From Eledone cirrhosa (taxonomy: Eukaryota): a DNA stretch of 64,000 bases. The stretch covers positions 16,492,001 through 16,556,000 of the forward strand of contig OZ024745.1 in NCBI GenBank assembly GCA_964016885.1, read 5' to 3'. Shown here piece after piece: positions 4,463-60,676 of this stretch (positions are counted from its first letter, which is position 1; each line of letters begins with the position of its first letter). The notes beneath the pieces were generated by a model. The model was given only the letters and a program-made list of their open reading frames with translations. It was not told the origin of the DNA and ran no database searches. The position numbers were made by a program, and so were the translations under genes.

Positions 4463-4796
4463 CAATGATATTAAATAAATGGAAACTATATTTATAAAAC
4501 ATATTTATACTATTATATATATTTCAAGGGTACCAACACTTTTGTACGCTTTCAGCAGATAAAATACGAAGTGTGTTTTATAAACTTTGACATAACCAAG
4601 AAAAAATACCTTAACGGTTCACTATACATGGAAAACTTGAACCGTTAAGGTATTTTTCTTGGTAATGTCAACATTTATAAAACACACTTCGTATTTTATC
4701 TGATGAAAGCGTACCAAAGTTTTGGTACCCTTGAAATATATATAATAGAATAAATATGGTTTTATATATATAGTTTCCATTTATTTAATATCATTG
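4463..4796. mobile_element. head-to-head palindrome of an HHR-bearing pseudo-LTR
   Basis: Inverted arms 4463-4621 and 4638-4796 with scattered mismatches. Same family as 29713-29850, 35305-35460 and 39130-39303. Confidence 0.9.
4692..4752 (+). ncRNA. minimal type I hammerhead ribozyme
   Basis: TATTTTAT-CTGATGA-[stem II aagcgtacc...ggtaccctt]-GAAA-T-ATAT-A-TA-ATAGAATA. The mirror copy at ~4507-4567 has a mutated core (CTGCTGA). Confidence 0.85.
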
Positions 4797-5921: not shown

Positions 5922-5961
<40 letters not shown>

Positions 5962-6352
5962 AGTGTAATTTACTACACAAAACGAAGGTTATAGAGAAAA
6001 TTGAGGTTGGTAATGGCACATGGAATATATAAGAGACAGAATACTTTTTTGTGAAAAAACATATAATTTTATAAGGTAAGGAAATAATAAAGGGTATAAA
6101 AAATGACCGGTTTCGATGGGTCTGCAAAAGCCATCTTTTCAAATGTTGATTAATATTAAGAAAAATTAATAATAAGAAGAGTTAAAATTTGAGATTTGAA
6201 AATTCAAGTATAAAATTCATTGTGGGATTTCACAGTAGTTTTCATCTTGGTAGCAGCTCGTTTAGCAGCTCGTTGACTGCTGGGTCCCTTTCTGGTAGTG
6301 AATGAGAAGTTATTTGAGGGTGTGGGTTATTTTATAAAGGTCAAATTTAGCA

Positions 6353-7349
6353 TGATAAACAACATAGATAATAACATACAATTCACAATGGAATCCAATC
6401 CCAAGGAATTAGCCTTCTTGGATATTCTCATCTCTGTAATAGACGGGAAATTAGATACAGATATATTCTATAAACCCACAGATTCCAAGCAATACCTCTT
6501 TTTCACATCAAGTCACCCAAAACATACAAAACTTAACATTCCTTACAATTTGGCCAAACGTATATGTACCATAGTATCAGATCCACCTAAACGGGAGCAA
6601 AGACTAAAGGAACTAAAATACACCCTTATCTTAAGAGCCTTTCCACTTGAAATAATCAACAATGGAATAGACAGGGCAAAACACCTAAATCCCCATCAAC
6701 TTAACAATCCAAAACAGAAAACCACACTCAACACCCTGCCATATGTATCCACTTTCAACCCCAGAAATACCGAAATGTTTGATCACCTACACAAAAACCT
6801 CCCCATCCTACTTAAAGATGTAAAAATGAAGTCTATTCTTGAAACACACAAGATCCTTAAAAGTAAAAGACAACCCAAATCACTAAAACGCATTCTCACT
6901 GGACCAAATATACCCAAACCAATCCTCAACCCTACAGTTACCAAATGTGGTAGAACAAACTGTGGACGTGCCTCTACCTCACTGAAGGACAACAATTTAC
7001 ATTTAAAGATGGCCAAACATTTACAGTAAAAAACAATTTCACCTGCAACTCGGAGAACTTGATTTACGCAATAACTTGCGGTGGGTGCAAACACAACTAC
7101 ATAGGACAGACGGGCACCTCATTACGCAAAAGAATGACCATCCACCGCCAACAAATCCGGGACGCTAGCACAAGAAAAATCCCCTTGAGCAGCCATATTG
7201 CGAACTGCGCAGGAATGACACTACCCAACTTTAAAATCTTCCCCTTCTACAAGTGCTCAGATTCGTTCACACAGCAACAAAGAATAAACAAAGAAAATCT
7301 ATTCCTTAACAAATTTAAACCAAAACTAAACGGGTTATCACCCCAATAG
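6353..7349 (+). pseudogene. PLE RT C-terminus + GIY-YIG endonuclease (frameshifted)
   Basis: IQFTME...FLDILI...TDIFYKPTDSKQYLFFTSSHPKH (PLE RT motif 7/thumb), then a frameshift near 6970-7030, then LIYAITCGGCKHNYIGQTGTSLRKRMTIH...E...KPKLN. Confidence 0.92.
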
Positions 7350-8295
7350 AATTGTCATAAAATATAAACACACATACGCACGGAGTGACAGATATATGTG
7401 TTTGTAGGTGTGCATGTATATAATTATCACTACTATTAAAGACCAGAGACCAATTCTGTAGAATCAGGTTTATTCGTTGACAGACCATGCCTTTGTGTGA
7501 CCAACACATCCATGTTAAACCCTGCACGTGCACCCACATATATCTATATATATATGCGCACACAGAATTCACCACTGTCGGTTGCCGGGCCCAATCTACA
7601 TGAAGAACTCAATGTGATCAGAATGACTTGTATTTTAATTTCACTGTCCTAACTTCTTATATTATGGAAAAAATATATGTGTATGTATGTATATATATAT
7701 ATATTTGGAGGCCATTTCTCTGTGTGTGGGTGTATGTATGTGTATATATGTGTGTGTGTGTGTGTGTTTGTATGTGTGTATGTATATATATGTGTGTGTG
7801 TGTGTGTGTGTATGTCATATATGTGTGTGTGTATGTGTGTGTCTATATATATGTATGTGTGTGTGTATGTACGTGTGTATATGTATGGATATATATATAT
7901 ATATATGTGTATATATGTGTATGTATATGTATATGTATGTATGTGTGGATGAAGGTATGTGTGTATATATAGGTGTAAGTGCACTAAATCCCTTTCTATC
8001 AATCTCCCCTCTCCTACCTACCACAGGAAGATATATGTATGTATATTGCTTCCACCCCCTCACTGACCAGCAGCTGGCCATCTGGCCATTGCTAAATTTG
8101 ACCTTTATAAAATAATCCACACCCCCAAATAACTTCTCATTCACTACCAGAAAGGGACCCAGCAGTCAACGAGCTGCTAAACGAGCTGCTACCAAGATGA
8201 AAACTACTGTGAAATCCCACAATGAATTTTATACTTGAATTTTCAAATCTCAAATTTTAACTCTTCTTATTATTAATTTTTCTTAATATTAATCA

Positions 8296-8341
8296 ACATT
8301 TGAAAAGATGGCTTTTGCAGACCCATCGAAACCGGTCATTT
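8296..8341 (+). ncRNA. hammerhead-like motif with UUGAAAA core
   Basis: ACAT-TTGAAAA-GATGG...CCATC-GAAA-CCGG-TC-ATTT. Stem I is weak. Mirror copy at 6101-6146 (-). Confidence 0.6.
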
Positions 8342-8511
8342 TTTATACCCTTTATTATTTCCTTACCTTATAAAATTATATGTTTTTTCACATAAAAGTA
8401 TTCTGTCTCTTATATATTCCATGTGCCATTACCAACCTCAATTTTCTCTCTCTCTCTCTATATATATATGTATTTATATGTATTTATATCTATAATGTTT
8501 GATATAGAAAT

Positions 8512-31744: not shown

Positions 31745-32408
31745 TGCAATACTTTCGGAACAAATTTTCTCACTGAGGTGTTAGCTTCAAAAAACATCTC
31801 CCTATCTTGTCTTGCTATTGGCTGTTGTTTTTCTACGTCATCATAAATTCTGGTCAATATTCTACTATATATATATATATAGTAGAATAATCGAGTATCG
31901 AAAAATCGGCGCACGAGTTCACGATAAACAAAATTCGACATGAGTGGCAGAGGGCTCAATAATTCAGATAAATCAGAGCTATAACTATCGTTAAAATACC
32001 AACACACAAAGATTATGTCTAAAATCACCCATACAACCAAAAAATTACGATCAGGAAGATTCGGGTCACTCAGATAAAATATCAATAAATCAATAAATCA
32101 TATGAATGTAAAAAGCTTACCCGGACCCACTAGAAAGATGGTAAATCTAGCTTCTTGGGTTTCTGTAATTCCTTAAACCGCTCCCTATCAGCCCACATAA
32201 AAATATATAAGACTTCTAGAGAGCGGCGGACAGGAATACTTTATCAACGGGCTTTGTCCAAACGAATAAAAAAGCCAACCCTAGTTGAAACGCACATGGA
32301 ATCCAGCAGTGGAGATAACCTCTATATCTTCGAAAGATATTCGGGAATGTGGGAAATCACATATCGAATAAGAGTGCTCAATAGACATGTTAAAATAAAC
32401 AGGAGCTA

Positions 32409-32409
<1 letters not shown>

Positions 32410-32452
<43 letters not shown>

Positions 32453-33203
32453 TATATACATATACATACACTCATACATACACACACACTCATATATACA
32501 CACATATATATGTGTATATAAATACACACAAACACATACACATACACATATATACATACGCACATAAATATCAACACATCCATACATACACATACATATA
32601 TACAACCACACACACATATATACACACATACAGACACATAGAAACATAAATATAAATACATATACAAACACACATATACATACATATATATACATATATA
32701 TACATATACATATATATATATGTTTGTACAAGCATACACATACACAAACATAGCCATACACACATACATATACATACATACATACATGCACACAATCATA
32801 CATATATACACACGTACATACATACACATACATAAATGCACTCCTCTACATATTCACACACGGAAATAAATATGAGAAAAAAAATATATATATATATATA
32901 AAAAAAAAGAAGACATTTTTGACAGCTATACAAACTGAAGTAACTGGACAGACACGCGTGGTAAGTAATACACACAAATGCACGTATACATACGTACGAA
33001 ATAGTAAATACATACACACACTCTCGCACATAAATATACATATACAAATACATAAACACATACATACACATACACAAATACATGCACAAACACGCACACG
33101 CACACGTATACAATTATACACACACATATACACACACATATGTATATGTAATTATATACACATACATATATATATATATATATACATAAATATAAAAATA
33201 CGA
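32410..33203 (-). repeat. third copy of the low-complexity element body (matches ~34170-34867 and ~39707-40480)
   Basis: Shared unique islands such as CATAAATATCAACACATCC, AATGCACTCCTCTACATATTC and GTAACTGGACAGACACGCGTGGTAAG. Confidence 0.9.
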
Positions 33204-33486
33204 TAAACGAACATCAACGGCCCTCGCAAGTAAGGTGTGGGAACTCAAGGATAGTAACATCCCGTACTCTATTGATTGGTCTATATTAGACCATTCGAGG
33301 GAGTACCAAAGGGGCACAAAGAATCGTTCTTTGTGTACCACAGAAAAGTATAGGATTTTGCTAAACTGGAGAGCCACTTCCGCTTGCCTTAACTCAAAGA
33401 CTGAGATCTTCAGATGCTGTCTTCATCTGAAATCGCATCTGATCTGTAACTGGATTGACACTCCTATGATAAATCAACCGCCCTGA
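33203..33486 (+). pseudogene. PLE GIY-YIG C-terminal remnant
   Basis: TSTALASKVWELKDSNIPYSIDWSIL...SLCTTEKYRIL...LNSKTEIFRCCLH. Confidence 0.85.
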
Positions 33487-33663
33487 ACTCCCTCTCTGCT
33501 CTTTACTTCTGCTACGGTTTTTATTTTGCTGAATCTACGTTCTGTACTCTTGTATATATTATTTTTTCTCCCTTACCTCCCCTTATATTTCACCTTTTCC
33601 TATGCCCCCCCCCCCCATATATTCTCTTTACCTTGCCCTTCACATACCTATGTATATGTGTGT

Positions 33664-33695
<32 letters not shown>

Positions 33696-33696
33696 G

Positions 33697-33760
<64 letters not shown>

Positions 33761-33787
33761 TGTAATAAACAACATAAGGCAATTATT

Positions 33788-33843
33788 CCATTTACCAGTG
33801 GTTTCTTAAAAGCAAAAGATTTTGCTTTCAATCCTCAGAATGA
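33788..33843 (-). ncRNA. hammerhead ribozyme (mirror of 40671-40726)
   Basis: Reverse complement of TCATT-CTGAGGA-stem II-GAAA-CC-ACT-GG-TA-AATGG. Confidence 0.85.
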
Positions 33844-34003
33844 AAAAATCCTGGTCTGTTTATTGAATTTGGATTTTAAAAACAAAAATGCAATATATAT
33901 GAAAGTGAGGCTGGAGAAGGAAGAAGGAAAGGAAAAATAAAATAAAACTACACATGCAAACACACACACAAAAACACGCACACTCACACACAAATACATA
34001 CAT

Positions 34004-34186
<183 letters not shown>

Positions 34187-34976
34187 CATACACTTATACA
34201 TACACACACACACATATATACACACATATATATGTGTATATAAATACACACAAACACATACATATACACATATATACATACGCACATAAATATCAACACA
34301 TCCATACATACACATACATATATACAACCACACACACATATATACACACATACAGACACATAGAAACATAAATATAAATATATATACATACACACATATA
34401 CATACATATATATATATATACATATACATATATATATATGTGTGTACAAGCATACACATACACAAACATAGCCATTCACACATACATACACATACATAAA
34501 TGCACTCCTCTACATATTCACACACCCAAATAAATATAAGAATAAAAAATAATTATATATATATATAATAAAAAAAAAGACATTTTTGACAGCGATACAA
34601 ACTGAAGGTAACTGGACAGACACGCGTGGTAAGTAATACACACAAATGCACGTATACATACGTACGAAATAGTAAATACATACACACACTCTCGCACATA
34701 AATATACATATACAAATACATAAACACATACATACACATACACAAATACATGCACAAACACGCACACGCACACGTATACAATTATACACACACATATACA
34801 CACACATGTATATGTAATTATATACAAATACATATATATATATATATATACATAAATATAAAAATACGCACACACACATATATGTATACATACACACACA
34901 CATAGACATACATAGCTATACAATTATACACATACAAATACGTACATATCATAAACACGCACAACCAAATACAAAC

Positions 34977-35029
<53 letters not shown>

Positions 35030-35148
35030 CATATACATACACATATACATGTGTGTGTCTGTAAAACTCAGTCTTAGATTATTCATATGAACCTTACATA
35101 TATATAGTAGTAAGGTAATAAAGTTATAAGCAACATAAAGCAATTATT

Positions 35149-35204
35149 CCATTCACCAGTGGTTTCTTAAAAGCAAAAAATGTTTCCTTCAATCTTCAGA
35201 ATGA
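35149..35204 (-). ncRNA. hammerhead, probably inactive (UG cleavage site); mirror of 39379-39434
   Basis: Core CTGAAGA and GAAA are present, but the site reads TG and stem II is eroded. Confidence 0.6.
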
Positions 35205-35244
35205 AAAAAACCTGGTCTATCTACATATACATACATATACACAC

Positions 35245-35311
<67 letters not shown>

Positions 35312-35348
35312 ATTAAATAAATGGAAACTATATTTATAAAACCATATT

Positions 35349-35414
35349 TATTTCATTATATATATTTCAGGGATAACATATCAACAATATGCCATGCCTT
35401 CTTCAGACAAAATA
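35349..35414 (-). ncRNA. minimal hammerhead ribozyme (mirror of 39197-39262)
   Basis: TATTTTGT-CTGAAGA-AGG...CCT-GAAA-T-ATAT-A-TA-ATGAAATA. Confidence 0.85.
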
Positions 35415-36770
35415 CAATATAAACAGTTTTATAGATAAATAGATTCGACATACCGTAACAACATCGACTTGCATTTGAGAAGGTTGATTTGGCAGCGAAA
35501 AAATTGTACACAGAGAGAAAGAAAGAGAGAAAAGGCAGAAAACGAAGAAAAAGAAGAAAAAGAAGAAATGCATGGAACAAAATAGAGAGATAGAAAGATA
35601 GATAAAGAGAAGAACTTCATGTAAAGAAACAGAGAGAGATATATATATAGAGAGAGAGAGGAAATAGAGATAGATACATATATATAGAAAACTAGGTAGT
35701 GGGACGTCTGTTGAGTAAACGTATCAATGATACATTTATTTATTTATTTATTTATTTAGCTCTAGTATTAATGTAAGGGAGATATATGGAGAGAAACCAG
35801 CTGTTATATAGAGAGAAAAAAATATATAGAGAGAAAAAATTTAAAAATAACCAGACATAGGCGAGGCGTAAAAAACCCTATGTTTTAATGTAGAGGTATT
35901 AGTATTTATAAAAACCAGCCACTATATTGTAAATATCAGTATTCCTGAATGAGACATGTATCCATAAAGTGTGAAAATTAATGATCTTATGTTTAGTTTT
36001 TTAAAAAAATTCATATGTTTATGTGATAACTACAAACATCTATGTGAATTTACATGATCAACTCTGCAAACCCTAAGTTCACGGAAAACATTCTCATTGT
36101 GGCATAAAAATTTAAGTATACATATATGTGTATATATATACACACAAATATATATAGAGTCAATATTACTATTCCTGTCTTTACTCTACAAGATTATCTA
36201 TCAAGCAGAAATAGAGAGCAGATTTCAATATACTAATAAAAATATATATCAGAAACAAAACTAAAAAATAACAATAATAATAATAAGTAATAATAAAATA
36301 GAAAACTAAAAAAATATTACGAAAGAATATTACATATTAAAAATATTACATATTAAAAAATATTAAAAATAAAAATATTAGAAAATACTACAATAATAAA
36401 AATAAAAATAAAAATAAACCACAAAGATCAACCCTTCAAAATCAATTGACAATATATTGCCAAGTTCATTATAAGCATCAGAGTCGAAAAACAGATAAAG
36501 CCAAAAATTATCTATCAAATCGCATCTAGCAAAGATCATTTCAAAAAGTTTAGGATGCCCATTTGGTCTACATGTGTTCTTATATTTAATATAGAAGTTT
36601 ATCTAGTGTAACGTTTATTCGAAATATTTGGAGCATCAACTTTTAGGGTAGCTTAATTTTTCATGAAGAATGTTTAAATAAAAATAAAAATAAAAATAAA
36701 AAGAATAAAAAGAAGGAATCAAAGATTTATCGGCTTGTTTCCCATATAATTATAAATCAAACTAAATATA

Positions 36771-37301
36771 CTACATTTTAAATTTAAATTTATATTTAAA
36801 CGTTGAGTTTAATCTATGTTTGCAGCAACTGAATAAATTTGTCCGTAGATTAAGGGAATTTTTAGATTTTAGTATAAAGAATATCTCCTCTGCGCAGAGG
36901 TCACATGTCTCAGAGGATGAATTAAAAGGAATCCCTCTTGAGACTATATTCCAAGCCGTCGAATATCTAACGTTATCTAGCTTAAGTTGCCAGAGTACGC
37001 CTGATAGTGCCGTTGAAGATTTTTTGCTTGGATCTGTGAAAGAATTCTTGTGGTTATTATAGCGAAGTTTAAATTCCGTCGATGTGGAACCGACGTAGTT
37101 AAAAGAATTAGAGTCAGTATTAACATTACAATTGTATACTATATTTTTAACTAAGCAGTTGTTATTTAACGGACATTTAGATCTATCTCTACAGTTACAT
37201 TTGTTAACTTGTATATTATTTATGCTATTATCACTAGGTTTTAAGTTCCTATTATTTATTCTATTAATATTTTGTGCTAAATTTTTGGTGGATGAGTAGG
37301 T
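36771..37301 (-). pseudogene. PLE linker Zn-finger + GIY-YIG endonuclease, uninterrupted but 5'-truncated
   Basis: CNCRDRSKCPLNNNC..NIVYNC...YVGSTSTEFKLRYNNHKNSF...CDLCAEE...LNLRTNLFSCCKH. Confidence 0.92.
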
Positions 37302-37304
37302 TTG

Positions 37305-37844
37305 CCCCCCCTTTCTCACTAAACATTAAAACCCACATCGCTAAACTATTTTTTAAAGCTCTTGATAATCGCTTCCCTAGAACACATAGGTATCACTCAA
37401 TTTTCAATAGACATACAATTAAATTAACCTACATCTAAATGTCCGTTAAATAACAACTGCTTAGTTAAAAATATAGTATACAATTGTAATGTTAATACTG
37501 ACTCTAATTCTTTTAACTACGTCGGTTCCACATCGACGGAATTTAAACTTCGCTATAATAACCACAAGAATTCTTTCACAGATCCAAGCAAAAAATCTTC
37601 AACGGCACTATCAGGCGTACTCTGGCAACTTAAGCTAGATAACGTTAGATATTCGACGGCTTGGAATATAGTCTCAAGAGGGATTCCTTTTAATTCATCC
37701 TCTGAGACATGTGACCTCTGCGCAGAGGAGATATTCTTTATACTAAAATCTAAAAATTCCCTTAATCTACGGACAAATTTATTCAGTTGCTGCAAACATA
37801 GATTAAACTCAACGTTTAAATATAAATTTAAATTTAAAATGTAG
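37305..37844 (+). pseudogene. PLE linker (PPFSLNIKT...IFNRHTIKLTY) joined across a deletion to the GIY-YIG domain
   Basis: Manual translation of 37305-37432. 37433-37844 mirrors 36771-37182. Confidence 0.88.
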
Positions 37845-39196
37845 TATATTTAGTTTGATTTATAATTATATGGGAAACTAGCCGATAAATCTTTGATTCC
37901 TTCTTTTTATTCTTTTTATTTTTATTTTTATTTTTATTTAAACATTCTTCATGAAAAATTAAGCTACCCTAAAAGTTGATGCTCCAAATATTTCGAATAA
38001 ACGTTACACTAGATAAACTTCTATATTAAATATAAGAACACATGTAGACCAAATGGGCATCCTAAACTTTTTGAAATGATCTTTGCTAGATGCGATTTGA
38101 TAGATAATTTTTGGCTTTATCTGTTTTTCGACTCTGATGCTTATAATGAACTTGGCAATATATTGTCAATTAATTTTGAAGGGTTGATCTTTGTGGTTTA
38201 TTTTTATTTTTATTTTTATTATTGTAGTATTTTCTAATATTTTTATTTTTAATATTTTTTAATATGTAATATTTTTAATATGTAATATTCTTTCGTAATA
38301 TTTTTTTAGTTTTCTATTTTATTATTACTTATTATTATTATTGTTATTTTTTAGTTTTGTTTCTGATATATATTTTTATTAGTATATTGAAATCTGCTCT
38401 CTATTTCTGCTTGATAGATAATCTTGTAGAGTAAAGACAGGAATAGTAATATTGACTCTATATATATTTGTGTGTATATATATACACATATATGTATACT
38501 TAAATTTTTATGCCACAATGAGAATGTTTTCCGTGAACTTAGGGTTTGCAGAGTTGATCATGTAAATTCACATAGATGTTTGTAGTTATCACATAAACAT
38601 ATGAATTTTTTTAAAAAACTAAACATAAGATCATTAATTTTCACACTTTATGGATACATGTCTCATTCAGGAATACTGATATTTACAATATAGTGGCTGG
38701 TTTTTATAAATACTAATACCTCTACATTAAAACATAAGGTTTTTTACGCCTCGCCTATGTCTGGTTATTTTTAAATTTTTTCTCTCTATATATTTTTTTC
38801 TCTCTATATAACAGCTGGTTTCTCTCCATATATCTCCCTTACATTAATACTAGAGCTAAATAAATAAATAAATAAATGTATCATTGATACGTTTACTCAA
38901 CAGACGTCCCACTACCTAGTTTTCTATATATATGTATCTATCTCTATTTCCTCTCTCTCTCTATATATATATCTCTCTCTGTTTCTTTACATGAAGTTCT
39001 TCTCTTTATCTATCTTTCCATCTCTCTATTTTGCTCCATGCATTTCTTCTTTTTCTTCTTTTTCTTCGTTTTCTGCCTTTTCTCTCTTTCTTTCTCTCTG
39101 TGTACAATTTTTTCACTGCCAAATCAACCTTCTCAAATGCAAGTCGATGTTGTTACGGTATGTCGAATCTATTTATCTATAAAACTGTTTATATTG

Positions 39197-39262
39197 TATT
39201 TTGTCTGAGGAAGGCATGGCATATTGTTAATATGTTATCCCTGAAATATATATAATGAAATA
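39197..39262 (+). ncRNA. minimal hammerhead ribozyme
   Basis: TATTTTGT-CTGAGGA-AGG...CCT-GAAA-T-ATAT-A-TA-ATGAAATA. Its core differs from the mirror copy only at the free N7 position. Confidence 0.85.
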
Positions 39263-39299
39263 AATATGGTTTTATAAATATAGTTTCCATTTATTTAAT

Positions 39300-39338
<39 letters not shown>

Positions 39339-39378
39339 GTGTGTATATGTATGTATATGTAGATAGACCAGGTTTTTT

Positions 39379-39434
39379 TCATTCTGAAGATTGAAGGAAA
39401 CATTTTTTGCTTTTAAGAAACTACTGGTGAATGG
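39379..39434 (+). ncRNA. hammerhead, probably inactive (UG site)
   Basis: TCATT-CTGAAGA-...-GAAA-CT-ACT-GG-TG-AATGG. Confidence 0.6.
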
Positions 39435-39557
39435 AATAATTGCTTTATGTTGCTTATTACTTTATTACCTTACTACTATATATATGTAAGGTTCATATGA
39501 ATAATCTAAGACTGAGTTTTACAGACACACACATGTATATGTGTATGTATATGTATG

Positions 39558-39598
<41 letters not shown>

Positions 39599-40206
39599 GT
39601 TTGTATTTGGTTGTGCGTGTTTATGATATGTACGTATTTGTATGTGTATAATTGTATAGCTATGTATGTCTATGTGTGTGTGTATGTATACATATATGTG
39701 TGTGTGCGTATTTTTATATTTATGTATATATATATATATATATGTATTTGTATATAATTACATATACATGTGTGTGTATATGTGTGTGTATAATTGTATA
39801 CGTGTGCGTGTGCGTGTTTGTGCATGTATTTGTGTATGTGTATATATGTGTTTATGTATTTGTATATGTATATTTATGTGCGAGAGTGTGTGTATGTATT
39901 TACTATTTCGTACGTATGTATACGTGCATTTGTGTGTATTACTTACCACGCGTGTCTGTCCAGTTACCTTCAGTTTGTATCGCTGTCAAAAATGTCTTTT
40001 TTTTTTATTATATATATATATAATTATTTTTTATTCTTATATTTATTTGGGTGTGTGAATATGTAGAGGAGTGCATTTATGTATGTGTATGTATGTACGT
40101 GTGTATATATGCATGATTGTGTGCATGTATGTATGTATGTATGTATGTATGTATATGTATGTGTGAATGGCTATGTTTGTGTATGTGTATGCTTGTACAC
40201 ACATAT

Positions 40207-40240
<34 letters not shown>

Positions 40241-40459
40241 GTATGTATATGTGTGTATGTATATGTATTTATATTTATGTTTCTATGTGTCTGTATGTGT
40301 GTATATATGTGTGTGTGGTTGTATATATGTATGTGTATGTATGGATGTGTTGATATTTATGTGCGTATGTATATATGTGTATATGTATGTGTTTGTGTGT
40401 ATTTATATACACATATATATGTGTGTATATATGTGTGTGTGTGTATGTATGAGTGTATG

Positions 40460-40510
<51 letters not shown>

Positions 40511-40670
40511 ATGTATGTTTTTGTGTGTGAGTGTGCGTGTTTTTGTGTGCGTGTTTGCATGTGTAGTTTTATTTTATTTTTCCTTTCCTTCTTCCTTCTC
40601 CAGCCTCACTTTCATATAGATTGCATTTTTGTTTTTAAAATCCAAATTCAATAAACAGACCAGGATTTTT

Positions 40671-40726
40671 TCATTCTGAGGATTGAAAGCAAAATCTTTT
40701 GCTTTTAAGAAACCACTGGTAAATGG
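40671..40726 (+). ncRNA. hammerhead ribozyme
   Basis: TCATT-CTGAGGA-TTGAAAGCAAAA-TC-TTTTGCTTTTAA-GAAA-CC-ACT-GG-TA-AATGG. Confidence 0.88.
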
Positions 40727-40753
40727 AATAATTGCCTTATGTTGTTTATTACA

Positions 40754-40812
<59 letters not shown>

Positions 40813-42574: not shown

Positions 42575-43300
42575 GTTAGGATTAAAGACTTACAATAACC
42601 CCCCAAGCAACCCAGCTTTATTACATTTGAAAAATGATGTACGTGAACTCATACAGAGTATCAAAGTTTGAAAGAGAAACAACTCCTTCCAAACATATTT
42701 GAAGATTTTTAATAGAAACAGGGTCAAATATCCTATTCTCACTGCATCTAACTTTGGTAAATTACGTAGCCGTAGTAATATAAACAATCCAGAAGTTGCA
42801 ATTGTGTCAATAGAGGCTACTGCCCTCAAGCCGGGATATGTCTATCAAGCAATATTGTTTACAAATGTAAGGGTAACCCACCCAGTACTAGTAAGATTTA
42901 CATAAGGTTAACTGCAAATAGATTTATGCAGCGTCTATACATGTGCTCGCATTCATTTCGAAAACTTTTAAGAGAGAATATGACTTCAATATCAACCTAT
43001 ATCGTAAGATTAAAAGACAATAACATCCGGTATAGGTTACACTGGGAAATCTTTACTAAAGCTAGATACTATAACGGAAATGAAAGGCCGTGTGACATTT
43101 GTGCCGCTGAAGCACTGGAAAACCTTTACGCCAACGAACGAATCTTAAACAAACACTCTGAGGCAATTTCGGCTTGTAGCTTGTAAGCATAAACTGTATA
43201 AAACATTACTATATCCTTTACCACGGATGGTAGGGACACTTTGCTGATGATATACGTCATGATGTGATAGCTAAGGACGATCTACATTTATACTCAATAT
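42575..43300 (+). pseudogene. decayed PLE linker + GIY-YIG
   Basis: KIFNRNRVK...QRLYMCSHSF...ISTYIVRLKDNNIRYRLHWEIFTKARYYNGNERPCDICAAEALE. Confidence 0.85.
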
Positions 43301-44774: not shown

Positions 44775-46391
44775 ATGGCTAATTCACCTCTGCACCAAGC
44801 AGCTGAAAGCCTTCCTCACAAATTAACACCTCACACCGACACCACCATTGTAAATGTTACTACGTTTGCCAACACAAAAATAAATATAAGCAGTAGCAAT
44901 ATTTTAAATTTGTCTCAGGCAGACATTCATTTCCCGCCATTACCAATGACTGCAGGTGTTAAAGCCTCCACCACCACCACCACCACCGCGACAACCACCA
45001 CCCCCACCACCACCGCGACAACAGAAACAAAAGAAGAAAAAAATAAATTAACTCGTGATGTCGAAATGAAATCAAGCAAATTGGACTCTTCCCCACCAAA
45101 GACGACTGACGTCACCACCACCACAACTGAAACTAAAATTAATATTAACACAAATAACGATAGCAACAACAACAACAATGACATTATAAAAACGACCCTC
45201 AGTTTTGCAATAGTAGCAAAACAGTTCGAAGCATTTACGGTAACTCAGGAGGATTTAGAAAATGCCAAACAAATGGTAAAGAAAGATGGGTACACGGTCA
45301 GCCTCACCCCCCCACCTAATAAAATGGAGCATCGGCGCCTATGCACCGTGTCGTATCGAACGATAAATGTAAAATCGCGCCGAGTGGAACGGGCATCCGA
45401 GTCCCAAATCCAAAAAGCTTTGGGACATGTGTGGGCAAGAAAAACCCACATCAGACGTAGGCAGAAGTATGGAACCGTGGACGTGTTCTTTGAAACACCA
45501 GAGGAGGCTAGAGAACACTCCATGACCCCATTAAGAAGTGACGACTTCACACTCGTCCCAAGCTTTTGTGGCCAGAGACTCGTAAAGCAGCAACAACAGA
45601 AGCAACTATAACAGCAACAACCCCAGCAACAGTAGCAAAACCAACACCACCACCACCACCAGCAAAACCAACACCACCACCACCCAACGCTTCAGAACTA
45701 GCACCAGCGCCTACACCATCCACCACGCCACAACCAAAACTAACGCCTGTGGAGGATTTTCCACTCCCCGGCCTATCACAACTGGCGACAGATTGTGACG
45801 ATGAGGAGTGGGAAACGATATCCGGAAAAAAAAAGAAACCAAAAAAGAAAAAGTTCTCTTCGTTCCCCCTCCAAAAACAAAATACAGAGGGAAACAAATA
45901 AACTAAGAAACAAAAAAGTTAGGACAGATATGCCACCATCCACACCAGCATCACCAACCCCATCAACCCAAACACCAACACCATCACCATCATTAACTCC
46001 AACACCACCATCACCTACACCACAAAAGTCACCAAAATGCGAAACAGAAACAAACCCACAACAAACGCAAACAAAACAAAACAACCAAAACGATACACAC
46101 TACACAGCATTAAATTTGAACAACAAGCAATTATTACACTACATCCAACACAACACCAGCATCACAGAAAAAGACTACACAATAACCCCAAAATTCACAC
46201 CACCTCCACACATACAAATCACTCGCATCACACAGAAAACGTACATGACACTAAAACAAAAATTCAACAAAGACATCGGAGACTTCCGACAAGCACTCTC
46301 CAGGAGGATTTATAAGGACATCCTTCCTGAGGAGGCCACAAGCAGTGAAAAGGATGGAAAAACCTTCCTTCCCCTACGAGAAGTAAGGTAA
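44775..46391 (+). pseudogene. Tx1 ORF1 (Thr/Pro-rich, RRM-like segment), frameshifted
   Basis: Three overlapping ORFs upstream of ORF2, with GTVDVFFETPEEAREH in the RRM-like stretch. No zinc knuckle seen. Confidence 0.7.
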
Positions 46392-46425
46392 GTGGTCTTT
46401 CCCATCTTTTCCACTCCTTTTCAAC

Positions 46426-49400
46426 ATGACCTCACTCAGAATAGGCAGCATAAATGCGCGTGGCTTGGGGTCGTCATGGAAGCAGGGCCACCTGCTTAAC
46501 GACCTCAGGTCACTAAACATAGATGTAGTGGCCATCAGCGAGAACAGAATCTCCGAAGCACAGGCCTTCGCACCGATCTTCGGCGGCTACGATGTGTACG
46601 CATCTCCCAGCCGTCCGGGATCGGGGGGAGGAGTTGCTGTGCTTTTTCGGAGAGGTTTGGATCTTGCCATACGGGCCATCTTCCTGGACCCAGAACGTAA
46701 GTTGGTGGTGCTGCACGTGACCAGCGGAGACGGGCAAGCTTTCAGGTTAGTGGCCGTCTATGCCCCGACAGGAGCAGGGCGGCCTGATTTCTTCCGGCGT
46801 CTGGAGACCTTTCTTGGAACGTCCCGCTCTTTAGTGTTAGTGGGCGACTGGAACGGGATCTTAGATGCACGCTGGGATTGTGTGGGATTAGTGGATAGGG
46901 AAGGAGGGTGCAAGAGTCTCACCAACCTGCTCAGACGTTTTGAACTGTCTGACAGGTACCGAATGGATTTCCCGAATGTACCAATGTGGATGTGGACAAA
47001 TCGCATAGGGTCATCCAGATCATATCTAGATAGAGTATTTTGTAGGGAAATAGATAGGTCTAGCATAGGCTGTCCACAATTCAAGATATTCAGCTACACG
47101 GACCACAAATTCGTGATCTGTGTGCTTGACTTAGATAGGCTTCATAGGCGAGGACCCGGCTACTGGAAGCTAAACGCGTCCTTACCAGCGCGCAAGGCCT
47201 ACAGAGACCGGATTAGCGAACTAGTTAAGCGGGCGTTGACGGGGGCCATCGTCAACAACAAGTGGTGGTTTGCTCTGAAAAGAGCAATTAGAATAGAGTC
47301 CATTAGGTTTAGTAAGACTTTAGCAATAGAGAAAAATAGAGCAGAGGGAGAACTAGTTAGAAAATTAGATGAGGCGCTTAGCAAAGGCATCGCGACCGAC
47401 GTACTTGCGGCGAAATTAGCCCTTGACCAATTCTTCAATGCAAAGCACGAAGGCTGCGTTGTCAGAGCTAGGGTGCGTGCTCTCAGACACGAGGGGACGA
47501 AAGCCGTTCAATGGGCCCGAGTGGCGGAGGCGCGTCGTGGCAACAAAGCCACGATCCGGTCTTTGGTGGACCACGACGGGCGCATGCTACTCGATCTCGG
47601 GCAAATGTGTGAAGCTTTTCAGCGACACTTCGCTCAACTGTTCGGGGGCAGTGGCGGGCCGGATCGAGGGATGGACTTTAGTGTCTACCTCGACGGACTG
47701 CCGCGGCTTCCGGCCACTGAGGCGGAGTGATGCGAAAAGCCGATAACAACCGCTGAAGTACGGGATGCAATGACTAGTTGCACAAGGGGTAAATCGCCTG
47801 GTTTGGATGGTCTGCCCTATGAACTTTACGTACAAATGCCAAACTTGTTCGGAGGCCTCTTGGCGGACGTCTACTGCAACTGGCAACAGAACGGGAGAAT
47901 TCCCAGCTCTGTGAGCCGAGGAGCGGTGGCGCTGCTGAGAAAGGATCCGAACAAGGGGGATAACATAGATAATTTTAGGCCCATAACTCTGCTAAACACA
48001 GAGTTCAAGATTTTGGCCAAGGTGCTAGAAAAGAGGTTGGCGCTTGTCGTTGGTGGTCTGGTGGGAGAGGCATAGACATGCGCCATTCCCGACAGATCCA
48101 TCCACGACAACCTCCACCTCATGCGATACATCGTAGAGAGGGTAGCTAGGGAACCTGGCACGGGTGGGTCTTTGATCAATTTAGATCAGTCGAAAGCCTT
48201 CGATAGGGTCGACCATCGTTACCTAGAGGAAGTCCTGAGGGCGGCTGGCTTTGGGCCCGTCTTCAGAGGCTGGATCGCTGCCATGCACTGCAACATCTGC
48301 TCTGTAGTGAGAGTGAACGGTCACCTTTCGGAACCGTTCAACATCATGCGCTCGGTCCGCCAAGGATGTCCCCTCTCGTCCCTCTTGTACGTATTGACTC
48401 TCGAGCCATTACTGCACAAACTGGAGACGTTGAGGGGTATCCCGCGCGAACTAGGATGCGGAAGATCCGTGTCAGCATATGCCGACGATGTCACCGTAGT
48501 GGTGTCGAACGCCAAACACATCGAGGCGATCGGCACTACACTGAGAGAATACGAAGCGGTGACAGGAGCAATGATCAACCAGGAAAAGTCAGTGGGCCTG
48601 CAGCTCGGCACCTGGAGAGGCAGGTCCATGCCGTCCAACAGCGTCGTCGGGCGCTGGACAGACGGACCGGTTAAATTGCTAGGGGTCTGGTTCGGTCCAG
48701 ACCTCCAGACGGACAAAAACTGGGACGAGGTGACGAGCAGGGTGGCTTCTCTCACCCAGAAATGGGCCGAGAGGAAGCTATCCCTGAAAGGTCGAGCGGA
48801 GGTAGCTAACGCGTATATCGCGTCCGTCATCTACTACCGCCTGACCGTCGTACCTTGTCCTAAGCCCCGCCTGACTGCGCTGGAGCGTTTGCTCTTTCGC
48901 TTCTTGTGGAAGGGACGCGCTCCGATGGTCAGGGGGTCCATTTGCTGTCAACACCCGCTACGTGGAGGGCTGGGCATGCCGTGGCTGATGATGCGCAGAC
49001 ACGCGCTCAGGCTACGACATCTCCACCTCTTCCTCGACGGTGATCAGGTGTGGTCACCGTTTGCTAGACACGTTTTTCCCCAGCTCGTCTCCTTGACGGA
49101 GCTGCAGTCCTGGGTCAAGCGAAAACCGAGAGGGAGCGCTTGGAGACTGGAATGTCTTCAGGCGCTCACAGCCCTCGACCAATCGGGCAATGTGATCGGT
49201 GGAAACTCCACCTTGGCGTTCTATAGGGGATTAATGGAGTGGAAGAACGACGACGTACTTGGAGAAACTCTAGGCATCGACGAAAATCAACTAGCCAATC
49301 TCTTCGGAAGGACTTTCGGGCCGGGGCCTATGGACAACTTCCAGAAATCCCTGACCTGGCAGTGCTACCGGGGTGCTTTGCCAGTTCGGGATAAACTTTA

Positions 49401-49845
49401 CAGGCATGGAGGTGCCGTCAGCCGGGCATGTCCGAGATGCGCACAGGGCGACGAAACCGTCCTGCACGCACTGGTCCAGTGTCCGAGCATTGCTGACTTG
49501 TGGGTTTATGTCGAACACCTGCTGTCACGCGTAGGACGGATCCAGCTATCAGCTGAGTCCATCGTGAGGATTGCCCCGCCCTCTTCCTTTAGCCGGGAAG
49601 GGCAGGCAGTTTTTATCTGTCTGGTGGCCATGGCGAAAGAGATAGTATGGTGGACACGTTTGAAAGGGCTGAAGACGAGCACTTACCTCTTCGGTGATGC
49701 CCTGATTAACTTTTTCAAATTTCATCTGAAAAGGAAAATCAGGGTAGAGAGGGAAGTGCTCTCTTCCCAGCATTTTGTTGAAAGATGGGTGAGAGAAGCA
49801 AGTATGGCCCGAATGAATGGGCCTTCTCTGAGTATGTGTCTGTAA
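46426..49845 (+). pseudogene. Tx1 ORF2: AP endonuclease + reverse transcriptase + zf-RVT; single frame with two premature stops (47728, 48073)
   Basis: GSINARGL, VAISEN, VGDWN, SYLDRV, YTDH (APE); KSPGLDGL, FRPITLLN, DQSKAFDRV, VRQGCPLS, AYADD (RT); CPRCAQGDETVLHALVQC. Confidence 0.96.
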
Positions 49846-50088: not shown

Positions 50089-50120
<32 letters not shown>

Positions 50121-50427
50121 GAAAGTGAGGTTTATTGTTCCTACATGAGTGAAAGTATAGGGAAAAAAGATGAAATAGAAAATGCAATTGGAGTCCTTTT
50201 AAAAAAAAAAAATTTATTTGGTTCTTTTACCGGTTTCGCAGTTCTTGTGATTTTCAATAGTTGAATTGAAATGGAGGGTTCGTGGTTTTTCTTTTGAAAA
50301 GCACAAGAACTGCGAAACCGGTAAAGGAACCAAATAAATATATATAAAAAAAGACTCCAGTTGCATTTTCGATTTCATCTTTTTTCCTTATACTTTCACT
50401 CATGTAGGACAAAAAAACCTCACTTTC
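50121..50427. mobile_element. head-to-head HHR-bearing pseudo-LTR palindrome
   Basis: Arms 50121-50257 and 50294-50427. Confidence 0.92.
50284..50331 (+). ncRNA. minimal hammerhead with UUGAAAA (U3-A8) core
   Basis: GG(TT)TTTCTT-TTGAAAA-GCA-CAAGAAC-TGC-GAAA-CCGG-TA-AAGGAACC. The mirror arm (50220-50257) also has TTGAAAA. Confidence 0.75.
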
Positions 50428-51675: not shown

Positions 51676-54600
51676 GGCCCTTTCTGCCCGTGTGTTTGTT
51701 TGTTTATGTGTGTCCGTATACAGCGTGGTGATAATGCCACACAAGGGCCAAGTGGGATGGCGGATCCACAGATGGCTATGTAAACATACATTCGCCAATC
51801 CTCGATAAGAGTGTTTAAATATCGAACATAAACAGTTCGAATAACGGTGAAATGGAGACTAGAACGTCATGTGACAGACTCTCACCCAACAGGTGCCCCC
51901 TGGATCAGCAGCAGGAACCTGACTGTCAACCAAATACTGCTGATGTTGGAGGAAGAAGAAGAAGGAAAGGGGCCAGAACCAACTGGACGAAAGAATTGAA
52001 TAGAACTGTTATGCAATGCTACCTGAAAAGTAACCCCAAGGAGAGGGGCTACAGGAGACGGATGCATAACATCTGGAACGAGATTGGTTTATTTAAATTA
52101 GATGAACAAAAATTGGCCGGGCAGGCTCGGGTAATAAGAACTAATGGGTGGATAAGCGAGCTGGAACTGGAGGAACTGAGCAGAGAGAATGGCTTGGAGA
52201 TGGCGGGTGTAGTATGCCAGACAAGCGAGCCGGCGGGAAAAGAAGGTGAGGAGGTCCTGAGAACGGAGGAACCACCCGAAGCAGACAATGATCTGAATAC
52301 TGAGATAAATAATACCTGGAACAGAGATACGGCCACTGAGGAGATGAATGCTGACGGGCTAGGACAAGATTCGGTTGACATCCTAAATTTAGTGGTAGAT
52401 GAGTTGAACAATGATAGTGGGAGACCTATGAACCTAAGATTTGTAGACAGGAAAAAGTTAAAAGAAACAACAGCTAAGGTAAACAAAGTCATCCCATACC
52501 TTGAGGCGAGGAGTCTTCACCAGTGCAACAATATCCTCAAAGCAACAGCAAATACGGTGAGGAAACTACTTGGTATAAAAGCGAGAGGAAACAACAGACA
52601 AGAAAGAGCAGAGCCGTGGTGGAAGAAGCGACTGAGTGGGCAAATCGGGGAAATGAGAAATGACATAGGAAAGCTTGAGTCACTACTGAATGGGACACTA
52701 AAAAACATAGGCACTAAAAATAGACTGGAAATAAAATACAAAACTAGGAGTAAAAAGCTAAATATTATCATAGAGGAATTGAAGCAACGCATTGTAGCAA
52801 AGAGTGCCAAAATCAGGCGATACGAGAACAGAGTCAGTCAGTATAAACAGAACCGCATGTTCGACAACAACCAGAAGATGCTGTTTGGACAGCTTGAGGG
52901 GAAAGAAAGAGGCAACGACTTGATCCCTGGGGCGGAACAAGCTAAAACATTCTGGAGAGGAATATGGGAGCAGGATGTTAGACACAATGCCCAGGCAGGG
53001 TGGATTGAGACAGTACAGAGGGAGATCGGTGAGCAGGCACAGCAACAGACTGATTTGAGTATCACAGTTGAAACTCTTAAGGGGCAAGCCAAAAAACTAA
53101 CCAACTGGAAATCACCAGGCCCAGATGGTGTGCAGGGGTATTGGATTAAACATTTAACATCCCTCCACCCGAAGCTGACGGCCATGTTCAATGACTGCTT
53201 GGTGTCGGGTGAGGTGCCAGAGTGGTTGACAAAAGGTACCACAGTTCTGATAATGAAAGACCGAATCAAGGGTAATGATGTTACCAACTATAGACCTATC
53301 ACATGTCTGCCCGTAATGTGGAAACTGTTGACGAGCATTGTGTCTGAGGAAATCTACCATCACCTCCACACAAACAACTTGTTGCCGGACGAACAGAAAG
53401 GATGCCGAAAGAAGTCACGTGGTACAAAGGACCAGTTGCTTATTGATAAGATGGTAATGGGGAATTGCAGGAGGAGACACACTGATCTTGCCATGGGATG
53501 GATAGACTACAGAAAGGCATTTGACATGGTGCCTCATTCCTGGATCACCAAAAGCCTGGAGATCTTCAGGGTGGCAGATAACATCAGACAGTTGCTGGGC
53601 AGGAGTATGGGGTCCTGGGAGACAGAGTTGACATCAACTGGAGTATCCTTGGGAAGCGTGAAGATCAAGAGAGGTATCTTCCAGGGAGATAGCCTGTCCC
53701 CTCTGTTGTTTGTCCTTGCCCTGATGCCCTTGACCATTATGCTGCGAAAAGTGTGAGCAGGATACAAGTTGGGAAGTGGAGAGGTTACCATCAATCACCT
53801 CCTCTTCATGGACGATCTTAAGCTCTTCGGGAAAAGTGAGAAGGAGTTGGATGTGCTTGTTGACACTGTCCGTATTTTCAGCAGTGATATATGTATGCAG
53901 TTTGGTATTGGTAAATGTGGAGTCATTGTGATGAGGAGGGGTAGGTTGAGCAGAAGTAACGGGATCCAGATACCAACAGGTGAGATGATAAAGGAAATTG
54001 ACTCTGAGGAAGGATACAAGTATTTGGGCGTTCTGGAGGCTGATGGCATAAAGAACAAAAAAATGAAGGAATTGTAAAGAACTGAATACATTCGGAGAGT
54101 AAGGAGCGTATTGAAGTCACATCTGAACAGCAGAAATGCCATAAGCGCAGTAAATTCCCGAGCTGTGTCTATTATTAGGTACAGTGCGGGAATTCTGAGA
54201 TGGAATGTTGCTGAACAAAAAGAAATGGATAGGAAGACTAGGAAGCTATTGACTATCTACAACATGTTCCACAAGAGGAGTGATGTCGATAGACTCTACC
54301 TAAGGAGATCTGAGGGTGGAAGAGGTCTTATCAGCATAGAGGACTGTGTTCAGATGGAGAAAAACAACCTATACAAATACGTGACCTATAGTAAGGAGCC
54401 AATGCTCAGAGCTGTACTGGAGGAGGGGACAGTGGGCCAGGGGATACCCAAGGAGGAAATAACATCAAGGAGGAAGAGCAGCCTTAAGGGAAAATCCCTT
54501 CATAGTACCTTCTTTGAGAAAACTGAATTTGGAGATCCACAGACATGGAACTGGTTGAGAAGAGGAGACCTCAAAAAGGCTACAGAAGGAATGCTAATGG

Positions 54601-55317
54601 CTGCGCAGGAGCAGGCCCTCAAAACGAAGTGGTTGAAGCACCATATCTACAAGGAGGAGGCTAGCCCACTGTGCAGGATCTGTGGAGAGAGGGAGGAGAC
54701 TGTGGCTCACATTGTGTCCGAGTGTAAACACCTAGCCCAGACCCACTATAAGGGCTGGAGACACGATGTGATGGGCAGGGTGATCCACTGGCACCTGTGC
54801 AAAGTAAACAATCTACCACATTCTGAGAAATGGTATGAGCATAGGCCAGAGGCGGTGATGGAGAACAGTCAGGTGAAGGTGCTGTGGGATTTTAGGATAC
54901 AGACGGACAAAAAACTGGAACACAATAGACCTGACCTGGTGGTTGTGGACAAAGAAAAAAGATCGTGCCTGATTGTGGATGTGGCCTGCCCGTTCGACAC
55001 GAGAGTGCAAGAGAAGGAGAGGGAGAAAATTAACCGATACCAGGACCTAAAGTGGGAGGTGAAAAGGATTTGGAACTGCCATGAAGTCAAAGTGATCCCG
55101 ATTGTCATAGGCGCACTGGGGACTATCTCCAAAGGTTTCCAGGGATGGTTAAAGAAAATCGGCCCCTTCACGCTTTTTGGAACGCTTCAAAAGGCATGCT
55201 TGCTTGGAACGGCAAGAACCCTCCGATACGTCCTGAATATCTGAGGCTGCAGGTAGTGGCTTGATATTCAATCCAACGGACTTTCCAGTTAACCAACATC
55301 AATGACTGAGATTCAAG

Positions 55318-60053: not shown

Positions 60054-60253
60054 TACATATATATTTGAATATATATATATATACATATATACGTATATAT
60101 ATATATATATATGTATATATTATATATTCATGTATATATGAATAAATATATATACATATTTCGTTTCTGAATTTGTTTAGCAAGATTCTTTATCTGAAAT
60201 CGTGTGTTGAAACCGATATTGTTATACTTTGGGAGGGTCATGTTGCCAATAAG

Positions 60254-60676
60254 AGTTCAATATACATTATACATTTCTTATCTATACCCTCATGTATAGA
60301 TAAGAAATGTATAACCTGTAAAATAAGCCCCCATATTAATTGTAAAACTAGAAATGTAGTGTATAGCATAAGATGTACTGAAGGACAATGTAGAGACAAA
60401 AATATAGTGTACATAGGTGAGACAGCTCGTAGTGTAGGGGAACGGATAAATGAACACTGGCGAGACCTTCAAGATAATAAAGAATCATCTGTACTCTACC
60501 AACATGCTAAAATAGAACACAAGGGTAAATTAGAGAACATAGAAGTAAAAATAGAATCTACACACAGAAAAGACGCAATGTTTAGACAAATTACAGAGGC
60601 AATAAACATAAAAGAATTACAACCAAAATTAAATAGAAAATATGAGTGGAACAGCAACATCACAACTTATAATTAA
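60254..60676 (+). pseudogene. PLE linker Zn-finger + GIY-YIG
   Basis: CIDKKCITC...NCKTRNVVYSIRC...YIGETARSVGERINEH...SVLYQHAKIEH...RQITEAINIKELQPKLN. Confidence 0.92.

Follow-up and report, generated by a model that had tools for sequence, protein, structure and literature searches.

Minimal hammerhead ribozymes in which the C3-G8 pair is replaced by U3-A8 are a class already in print (2011, 2014). Perreault et al. (2011) reported that C3-G8 covaries to U3-A8 in several natural hammerheads, the U3-A8 pair having earlier been proven active in vitro (PMC3088659). Cervera & de la Pena (2014) described ~1,300 U3-A8 minimal hammerheads in the pLTRs of Schistosoma Penelope-like elements (PLEs), which their own first descriptor had missed; in their Fig. 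S3 the Schistosoma families include Sm3, with the core UUGAUAA, and Sm4, with UUGAAAA, and there is no cephalopod among the molluscs of that figure (PMC4209133). PLE minimal hammerheads cleave weakly and as dimers only, according to the same paper (PMC4209133). The excerpts of a 2026 retrozyme preprint and of PMC6155905 used here add nothing on U3-A8. A second point of comparison is the hammerhead of the anole Poseidon element PAc, which cuts only with protein, and whose 3-8 pair was probed by compensatory mutation (Frangieh et al. 2024, PMC11167929). Hammerhead cleavage was not needed for insertion of the anole PLE in vitro, and hammerhead mutants were unimpaired (PMC11167929). The motifs that we describe from Eledone cirrhosa are an ordinary further example of the U3-A8 class.

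The 64-kb stretch of Eledone DNA analysed (the window) contains four such motifs. An earlier note on this DNA had read TTGAAAA in the slot for CUGANGA at 50294, at 50257 on the minus strand, at 8300, and at 6142 on the minus strand, and it is present at all four, each time followed by a stem II and then GAAA-CCGG-UH (T-A at 50 kb, T-C at 8.3 kb). All four fit a minimal type I core with a Watson-Crick 3-8 pair, and U3-A8 is their sole departure from the strict hammerhead consensus. They belong to two families, A and B, and the family B copy at 50.1–50.4 kb has the following features.

50090 to 50120: (ATT)n microsatellite, left flank of the insertion
50121 to 50293, minus strand: left arm, an inverted, slightly longer 5'-truncated pLTR stub, from the comparison of the arms
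50257 to 50228, minus strand: damaged mirror hammerhead inside the left arm
50284 to 50290, plus strand: junction-derived bases, reverse-complementary to upstream sequence of the left arm
50291 to 50427, plus strand: right arm, a 5'-truncated family B PLE pLTR stub (full-length relative, L192)
50294 to 50323, plus strand: family B minimal hammerhead motif, UUGAAAA at 50294–50300 (U3, A8), H17 being A50323
50428 to 50475: (TAA)n microsatellite, right flank of the insertion

The segment 50121–50427 thus consists of two inverted 5'-truncated pLTR stubs that meet head to head, with (ATT)n on the left and (TAA)n on the right, and alignment of the two arms gives 122 identities, 15 mismatches and 3 gaps. 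In the right arm, the core is followed by a 3 bp stem II (GCA/UGC, 50301–50313), GAAA at 50314–50317, and an ACCGGU palindrome at 50317–50322 suited to an intermolecular stem III; UA follows CCGG, and the predicted cut is at 50323/50324, in agreement with the cut before 50324 proposed earlier. The extent of stem I has to be revised. Upstream similarity to the rest of the family ends at 50291, a junction confirmed in four contig runs (with loose ends there in runs X1–X3), and positions 50284–50290, previously assigned to stem I, are junction DNA foreign to the family hammerhead. Because these bases derive from the inverted partner copy, the native stem I is only 3 bp, CTT (50291–50293) with AAG (50324–50326). 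In the left arm the mirror core TTGAAAA is at 50257–50251 on the minus strand, G10.1 is T, stem I is 0 bp, and stem II is broken.

The whole 307-nt stub pair folds as a single hairpin (−181 kcal/mol, z −24). Folded as a dimer, the window family B motif has predicted helix probabilities of 0.01, 0.08 and 0.49, and it is predicted to misfold because the U-tract of the junction pairs with the core and sequesters it. On these models, the copy at 50.1–50.4 kb is likely to be an inert, dead-end insertion in which self-cutting is not expected. Many other family B insertions (L001–L030 and other loci) are also short inverted pairs. In an ungapped comparison, 28 of 113 distinct family B copies retain fewer than 8 native nucleotides on the 5' side of U3, and there is a hint of frequent truncation right at the 5' edge of the hammerhead in this family.

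The family A element occupies the 6–8.4 kb region of the window and retains part of a coding region.

5956 to 6352, minus strand: family A inverted pLTR copy at the left end, ending 149 nt past the predicted cut
6105 to 6142, minus strand: family A mirror hammerhead in the inverted pLTR, TTGAAAA at 6142–6136
6340 to 7349, plus strand: family A ORF, 5'-truncated and frameshifted, with RT thumb/linker, C-x4-C-x2-C and GIY-YIG
8090 to 8449, plus strand: family A 3' pLTR, ending about 110 nt past the predicted cut
8300 to 8337, plus strand: family A minimal hammerhead motif, with UUGAAAA at 8300–8306, GAAA, CCGG and UC

Here stem II is 5 bp (GAUGG/CCAUC, 8307–8327), stem I is just 2 bp, and the predicted cut is at 8337/8338. 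The ORF, whose GIY-YIG portion matches PF01541 (E 1.4e-6), is followed by a microsatellite-rich 3' region, and the left arm runs ~40 nt beyond the right arm as a one-sided tail. One-sided tails of 30–40 nt, inverted 5'-truncated copies and microsatellite targets are PLE traits (PMC8557442). Full-length relatives of both families are present in the genome. L154 is such a copy of family A: its two motifs, separated by 4,986 nt, enclose a 1,138-aa RT-EN frame that is frameshifted early on and whose start codon follows the predicted cut by 176 nt; L192 is a family B copy with a pLTR-ORF-pLTR organization and two motifs 4,979 nt apart, and the family B motif is downstream of RT and GIY-YIG in L142, L191–193, L195 and others. 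Proteins of both families match PF00078 (RT), and that of family B matches PF01541. Families A and B are C-terminal EN+ PLEs with pLTR hammerheads. In both proteins a C-x4-C-x2-C linker precedes GIY-YIG, and a CX2-5CxxC linker is common to Neptune and Nematis (PMC8557442); by this linker motif the two families would be of the Neptune/Nematis type.

Several other features of the window are of related kinds. Canonical CUGANGA hammerhead-like motifs of other repeats are at 4700, 10863, 23975, 35406/39205 and 33838/40676, with TATATA or TGCGCA palindromes or a 7-nt stem-loop III, and several are in inverted pairs. The region 32408–40811 is a set of nested inverted repeats, with arms at 35738–37185 and 37430–38877 that are 100% complementary over 1,448 nt, and which surround a GIY-YIG-like ORF fragment (37428–37841) and its mirror; the structure is either an inverted insertion of very recent date or a fold-back created by the assembly. 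Additional GIY-YIG-like ORF fragments at 42779–43183 and 60146–60673 appear by eye to be from other PLE lineages. Judged on translations alone, 46387–49842 (an endonuclease-like and RT-like pair) and 51819–55241 (RT-type) are fragments of two LINE-type elements. An Rfam scan of the window gave no hammerhead family among the best 150 of 287 matches, and those 150, microsatellite and hairpin matches to miRNA models, were rejected.

The helices of the hammerheads differ considerably in their predicted stability. Stem II adjoins the core (3 bp at 50301, 5 bp at 8307, 4 bp in L193) except in the 50257 mirror, where it is broken, and the ACCGGU self-duplex is worth −8.3 kcal/mol. When eleven motifs were folded as dimers, stem III had a probability of at least 0.49 in ten, and 0.01 in family A. 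Stem I is 4 bp in the L193 subfamily, 3 bp in the native window copy of family B and 2 bp in family A; it is just 2–3 bp in most families and weak in A, C, D, F and G. Its probability is >0.5 in two of the eleven motifs, L193 (family B) and the C3-G8 family H, and it is absent or <0.05 in the other nine. The native family B motif of L193 has helix probabilities of 0.74/0.94/0.97, and its double hammerhead (−21.1 kcal/mol) lies 1.4 kcal/mol above the dimer minimum (−22.5 kcal/mol). The family A double hammerhead is 16 kcal/mol above the dimer minimum, and another fold is preferred. The modelled folding support for a double hammerhead across the families is therefore mixed.

The two families had been described as unrelated, with no obvious similarity of their flanks. 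The flanks are indeed dissimilar: those in the pLTRs of A and B fail to align, the best blastn match (E 0.19) being at the motif itself. The families are nonetheless related, with a protein identity of 59% across 498 aa and an ORF DNA identity of 64% across 1,680 nt. Relatives were collected with a GIY-YIG search, in which 150 of 10,597 candidates were scored and 40 loci with long frames were taken, and used in a quick tree (43/77 protein pieces, each at least 240 aa) and in a more careful tree of 19 rows (LG+G4), in which long branches joining families G and H are flagged. At most loci of families D, F, G and H the motif escaped a strict descriptor and came to light in relaxed scans and by reading. 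Families A, B, D and F group together in a single clade (98/99 support in the 19-row tree; 100 SH-aLRT in the quick tree), and U3-A8 is present in all four of these sampled families, with UUGAUAA in D, UUGAAAA in F, and CCGG in both. The sharing of U3-A8 by A and B is explained by inheritance within one all-U3-A8 clade, and since they are related they represent one origin and not independent evidence; the U3-A8 of A, B, D and F was likely inherited from the clade ancestor. Two families are outside this clade. Family H has a canonical CUGAAGA core and a GUAC palindrome, and family G (L190, L198, L231–L236) has the core UUGACAA, with 459 matches and U3-A8 in 97 of the first 100, a stem III (AGGUCU) that is palindromic only via tandem G-U, and no clear stem I. 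Family G groups weakly (74/73) with family H, and a single clade of all U3-A8 families including G is neither established nor rejected (p-AU 0.137); a second origin of U3-A8 in the Eledone cirrhosa genome, via family G, is possible.

We scanned the Eledone cirrhosa genome (3.0 Gb) with the pattern TTGANAA-N8-30-GAAACCGGTH, using the reversed pattern as a control. The U3-A8 form has 23,342 matches (control 63), and the same pattern with single changes has 201 (U3-G8, A8G; control 50) and 249 (C3-A8, U3C; control 30), each ~1% of the U3-A8 count. The C3-G8 form has 115 matches, below its own control of 162, and most of those listed belong to a single different repeat family whose stems are poor. 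The excess of the double over the single mutants anticipated in the earlier note is thus present, but it gives no sign of selection. The control mutation A6G has 206 matches (the pattern also catches some U4 changes), and because A8G and U3C are as rare as A6G the counts reflect the decay of dead copies; we rejected the rarity of single mutants as proof of selection. The C3-A8 count is also inflated by a local tandem duplication at G000:C1:348863669-348949714, where there are eight listed C3-A8 family B copies, six of them ~9.6 kb apart. The C3-A8 matches also include small repeated sets (e.g. L137, L140), examined at the level of the motif.

A second census was anchored on the 3' side of the motif only and counted distinct family B copies in two sets of loci. 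TTGAAAA is present in 47 of 48 and 19 of 22 of these, so that U3-A8 is the state of the source elements and the norm in the family. Across families the core is kept, with position 7 being A, U or C, and the sequence and length of stem II and the flanks diverge; even between families whose proteins are only 45–59% identical, the 3-8 pair, G5, G12, A14, A15.1-U16.1 and a non-G H17 persist. Position 7 is a spacer in the hammerhead core (PMC4075628). This cross-family conservation, seen at the level of sequence, is better evidence of constraint than are the single-mutant counts.

Family F (L185, L209, L225–L230) carries a further change. Its motif reads UUGAAAA ... GCAA-CCGG-UA, with GCAA replacing GAAA, and the family pattern has 10,815 genome matches, with C13 in 97 of the first 100; a general GCAA pattern has 12,674 matches (control 48). 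The repeat at L237–L239 (UUGAGAA ... GCAA-CCGG-UU) is a candidate second A13C family, accounting by eye for ~44 of 100 listed rows among 296; the three loci examined have neither a PLE ORF nor a stable stem II. Judging by its title, an article by Lunse, Weinberg & Breaker (RNA Biol 14:1499) deals with many small hammerhead variants that are linked to PLEs and cleave as dimers. Our literature search found no paper on an A13C hammerhead, with Lunse 2017, the likeliest source, falling outside it, and the fixed A13C of family F may be new. The G8-A13 pair probably belongs to the hammerhead ground state. It is a known pairing (PMC6257768), and changes at A13 cost 10–100 fold (PMC4075628). Either the family F core tolerates a third change or its elements spread without cutting. 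We consider it unlikely that this is a still-active triple-variant core in which the loss of G8 removes the G8-A13 pair and so frees position 13.

The best explanation for these motifs, and one that we hold to be quite probable, is that they are U3-A8 type I pLTR hammerheads inherited within a clade, for which slow cutting as a double hammerhead, probably helped by protein, is predicted. In hammerhead cleavage G12 serves as base and nucleotide 8 supplies the acid through its 2'-OH (PMC6257768); this chemistry, with a Watson-Crick 3-8 pair, tolerates U3-A8. Two motifs in tandem or read-through RNA would pair via the self-complementary ACCGGU as stem III and swap stem I strands, with each cutting the other after H17, and this mutual cutting would excise the RNA of the element from a tandem or read-through transcript. 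Such cutting is predicted to be slow, to occur as a double hammerhead in full-length element RNA, and probably to be helped by protein. The anole PLE protein cuts and extends both strands and prefers ATT (PMC11167929), and by analogy the paired inverted stubs are likely to arise from priming on both strands of a cut microsatellite. The catalytic step is the weakest part of this explanation. The weak predicted stem I (>0.5 in only two of eleven dimers) and the modelled misfolding of family A count against double-hammerhead cutting, and the presence of family F at >10,000 copies in spite of a fixed A13C suggests that cutting may be dispensable.

In another account, improbable in our estimation, the motif is a hammerhead relic that no longer needs to cut and persists because, close to where reverse transcription starts, it binds protein or serves in dimerisation; U3-A8, the weak stem I and A13C would then be marks of relaxed catalysis. 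The weakness of stem I in families A, C, D, F and G is as this account would have it, as are the fixation of A13C in a family of >10,000 copies where A13 changes cost 10–100 fold (PMC4075628), the insertion of anole hammerhead mutants in vitro (PMC11167929), and the proliferation of Naiads without hammerheads (PMC8557442). Against it, retention of the 3-8 pair, G5, G12, A14, A15.1-U16.1 and a non-G H17 with position 7 free is the pattern that catalytic constraint would be expected to leave.

The remaining accounts concern the origin of the motif. Separate origins of U3-A8 in two families without common descent, and with them a new class, are very improbable: the non-aligning pLTR flanks of A and B and the weak grouping of the distant family G with the C3-G8 family H point in that direction, but A and B are in one clade composed only of U3-A8 families, which refutes independent origins for these two, and the class is in print (PMC4209133, PMC3088659). 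The earlier proposal of a natural U3-A8 class of minimal hammerheads consequently holds for the natural covariant and fails for its novelty. We assign almost no probability to the motif being a product of chance in AT-rich DNA or an artefact of fold-back in the assembly, even though the window has a high AT content and abundant inverted repeats, and TTGAAAA is a low-complexity word. The 23,342 matches (63 in the control) and the fixed pLTR position argue against chance, and the two arms at 50 kb differ at 15 of ~137 sites, which is not expected from fold-back of a read; both forms of this account are refuted by the counts, the pLTR position and the divergence of the arms.

A hammerhead census based on CUGANGA and GAAA can overlook motifs by the tens of thousands in a single animal, and in Eledone these comprise 23,342 U3-A8 motifs and 12,674 GCAA motifs. 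That standard CUGANGA searches overlook U3-A8, as the earlier note expected, is stated by Cervera & de la Pena of their first descriptor (PMC4209133). The need of PLEs for ribozyme cutting has been called unclear (PMC8557442), and the clade offers a natural series (C3-G8, U3-A8, U3-A8 with C13) in which to ask this question.

Among the closest known systems are the Schistosoma mansoni Cercyon PLEs, with which the Eledone elements share a type I minimal pLTR motif, U3-A8 and a palindromic stem III; in both, truncated elements have also left motifs that stand singly or in closely spaced inverted pairs (PMC4209133). They differ from Cercyon in having a stem III palindrome of 4 nt (CCGG) rather than 2 nt, a shorter stem II (3–5 bp), mostly without an extra base after A9, a stem I of 2–4 bp, a C-x4-C-x2-C linker of the Neptune/Nematis type, and a motif copy number that is ~20x higher (PMC4209133). 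In the section of Perreault et al. drawn on here, the natural U3-A8 hammerheads are not tied to PLEs and no A13C is named (PMC3088659). The elements also resemble the anole PAc, in which the pLTR hammerhead is similarly ~100 nt upstream of two element ends (the tail), and AT-rich or ATT targets are common to both (PMC11167929). The PAc core is canonical C3-G8, unlike the U3-A8 of Eledone, and its ORF starts inside stem II, whereas that of family A starts 176 nt past the predicted cut (PMC11167929).
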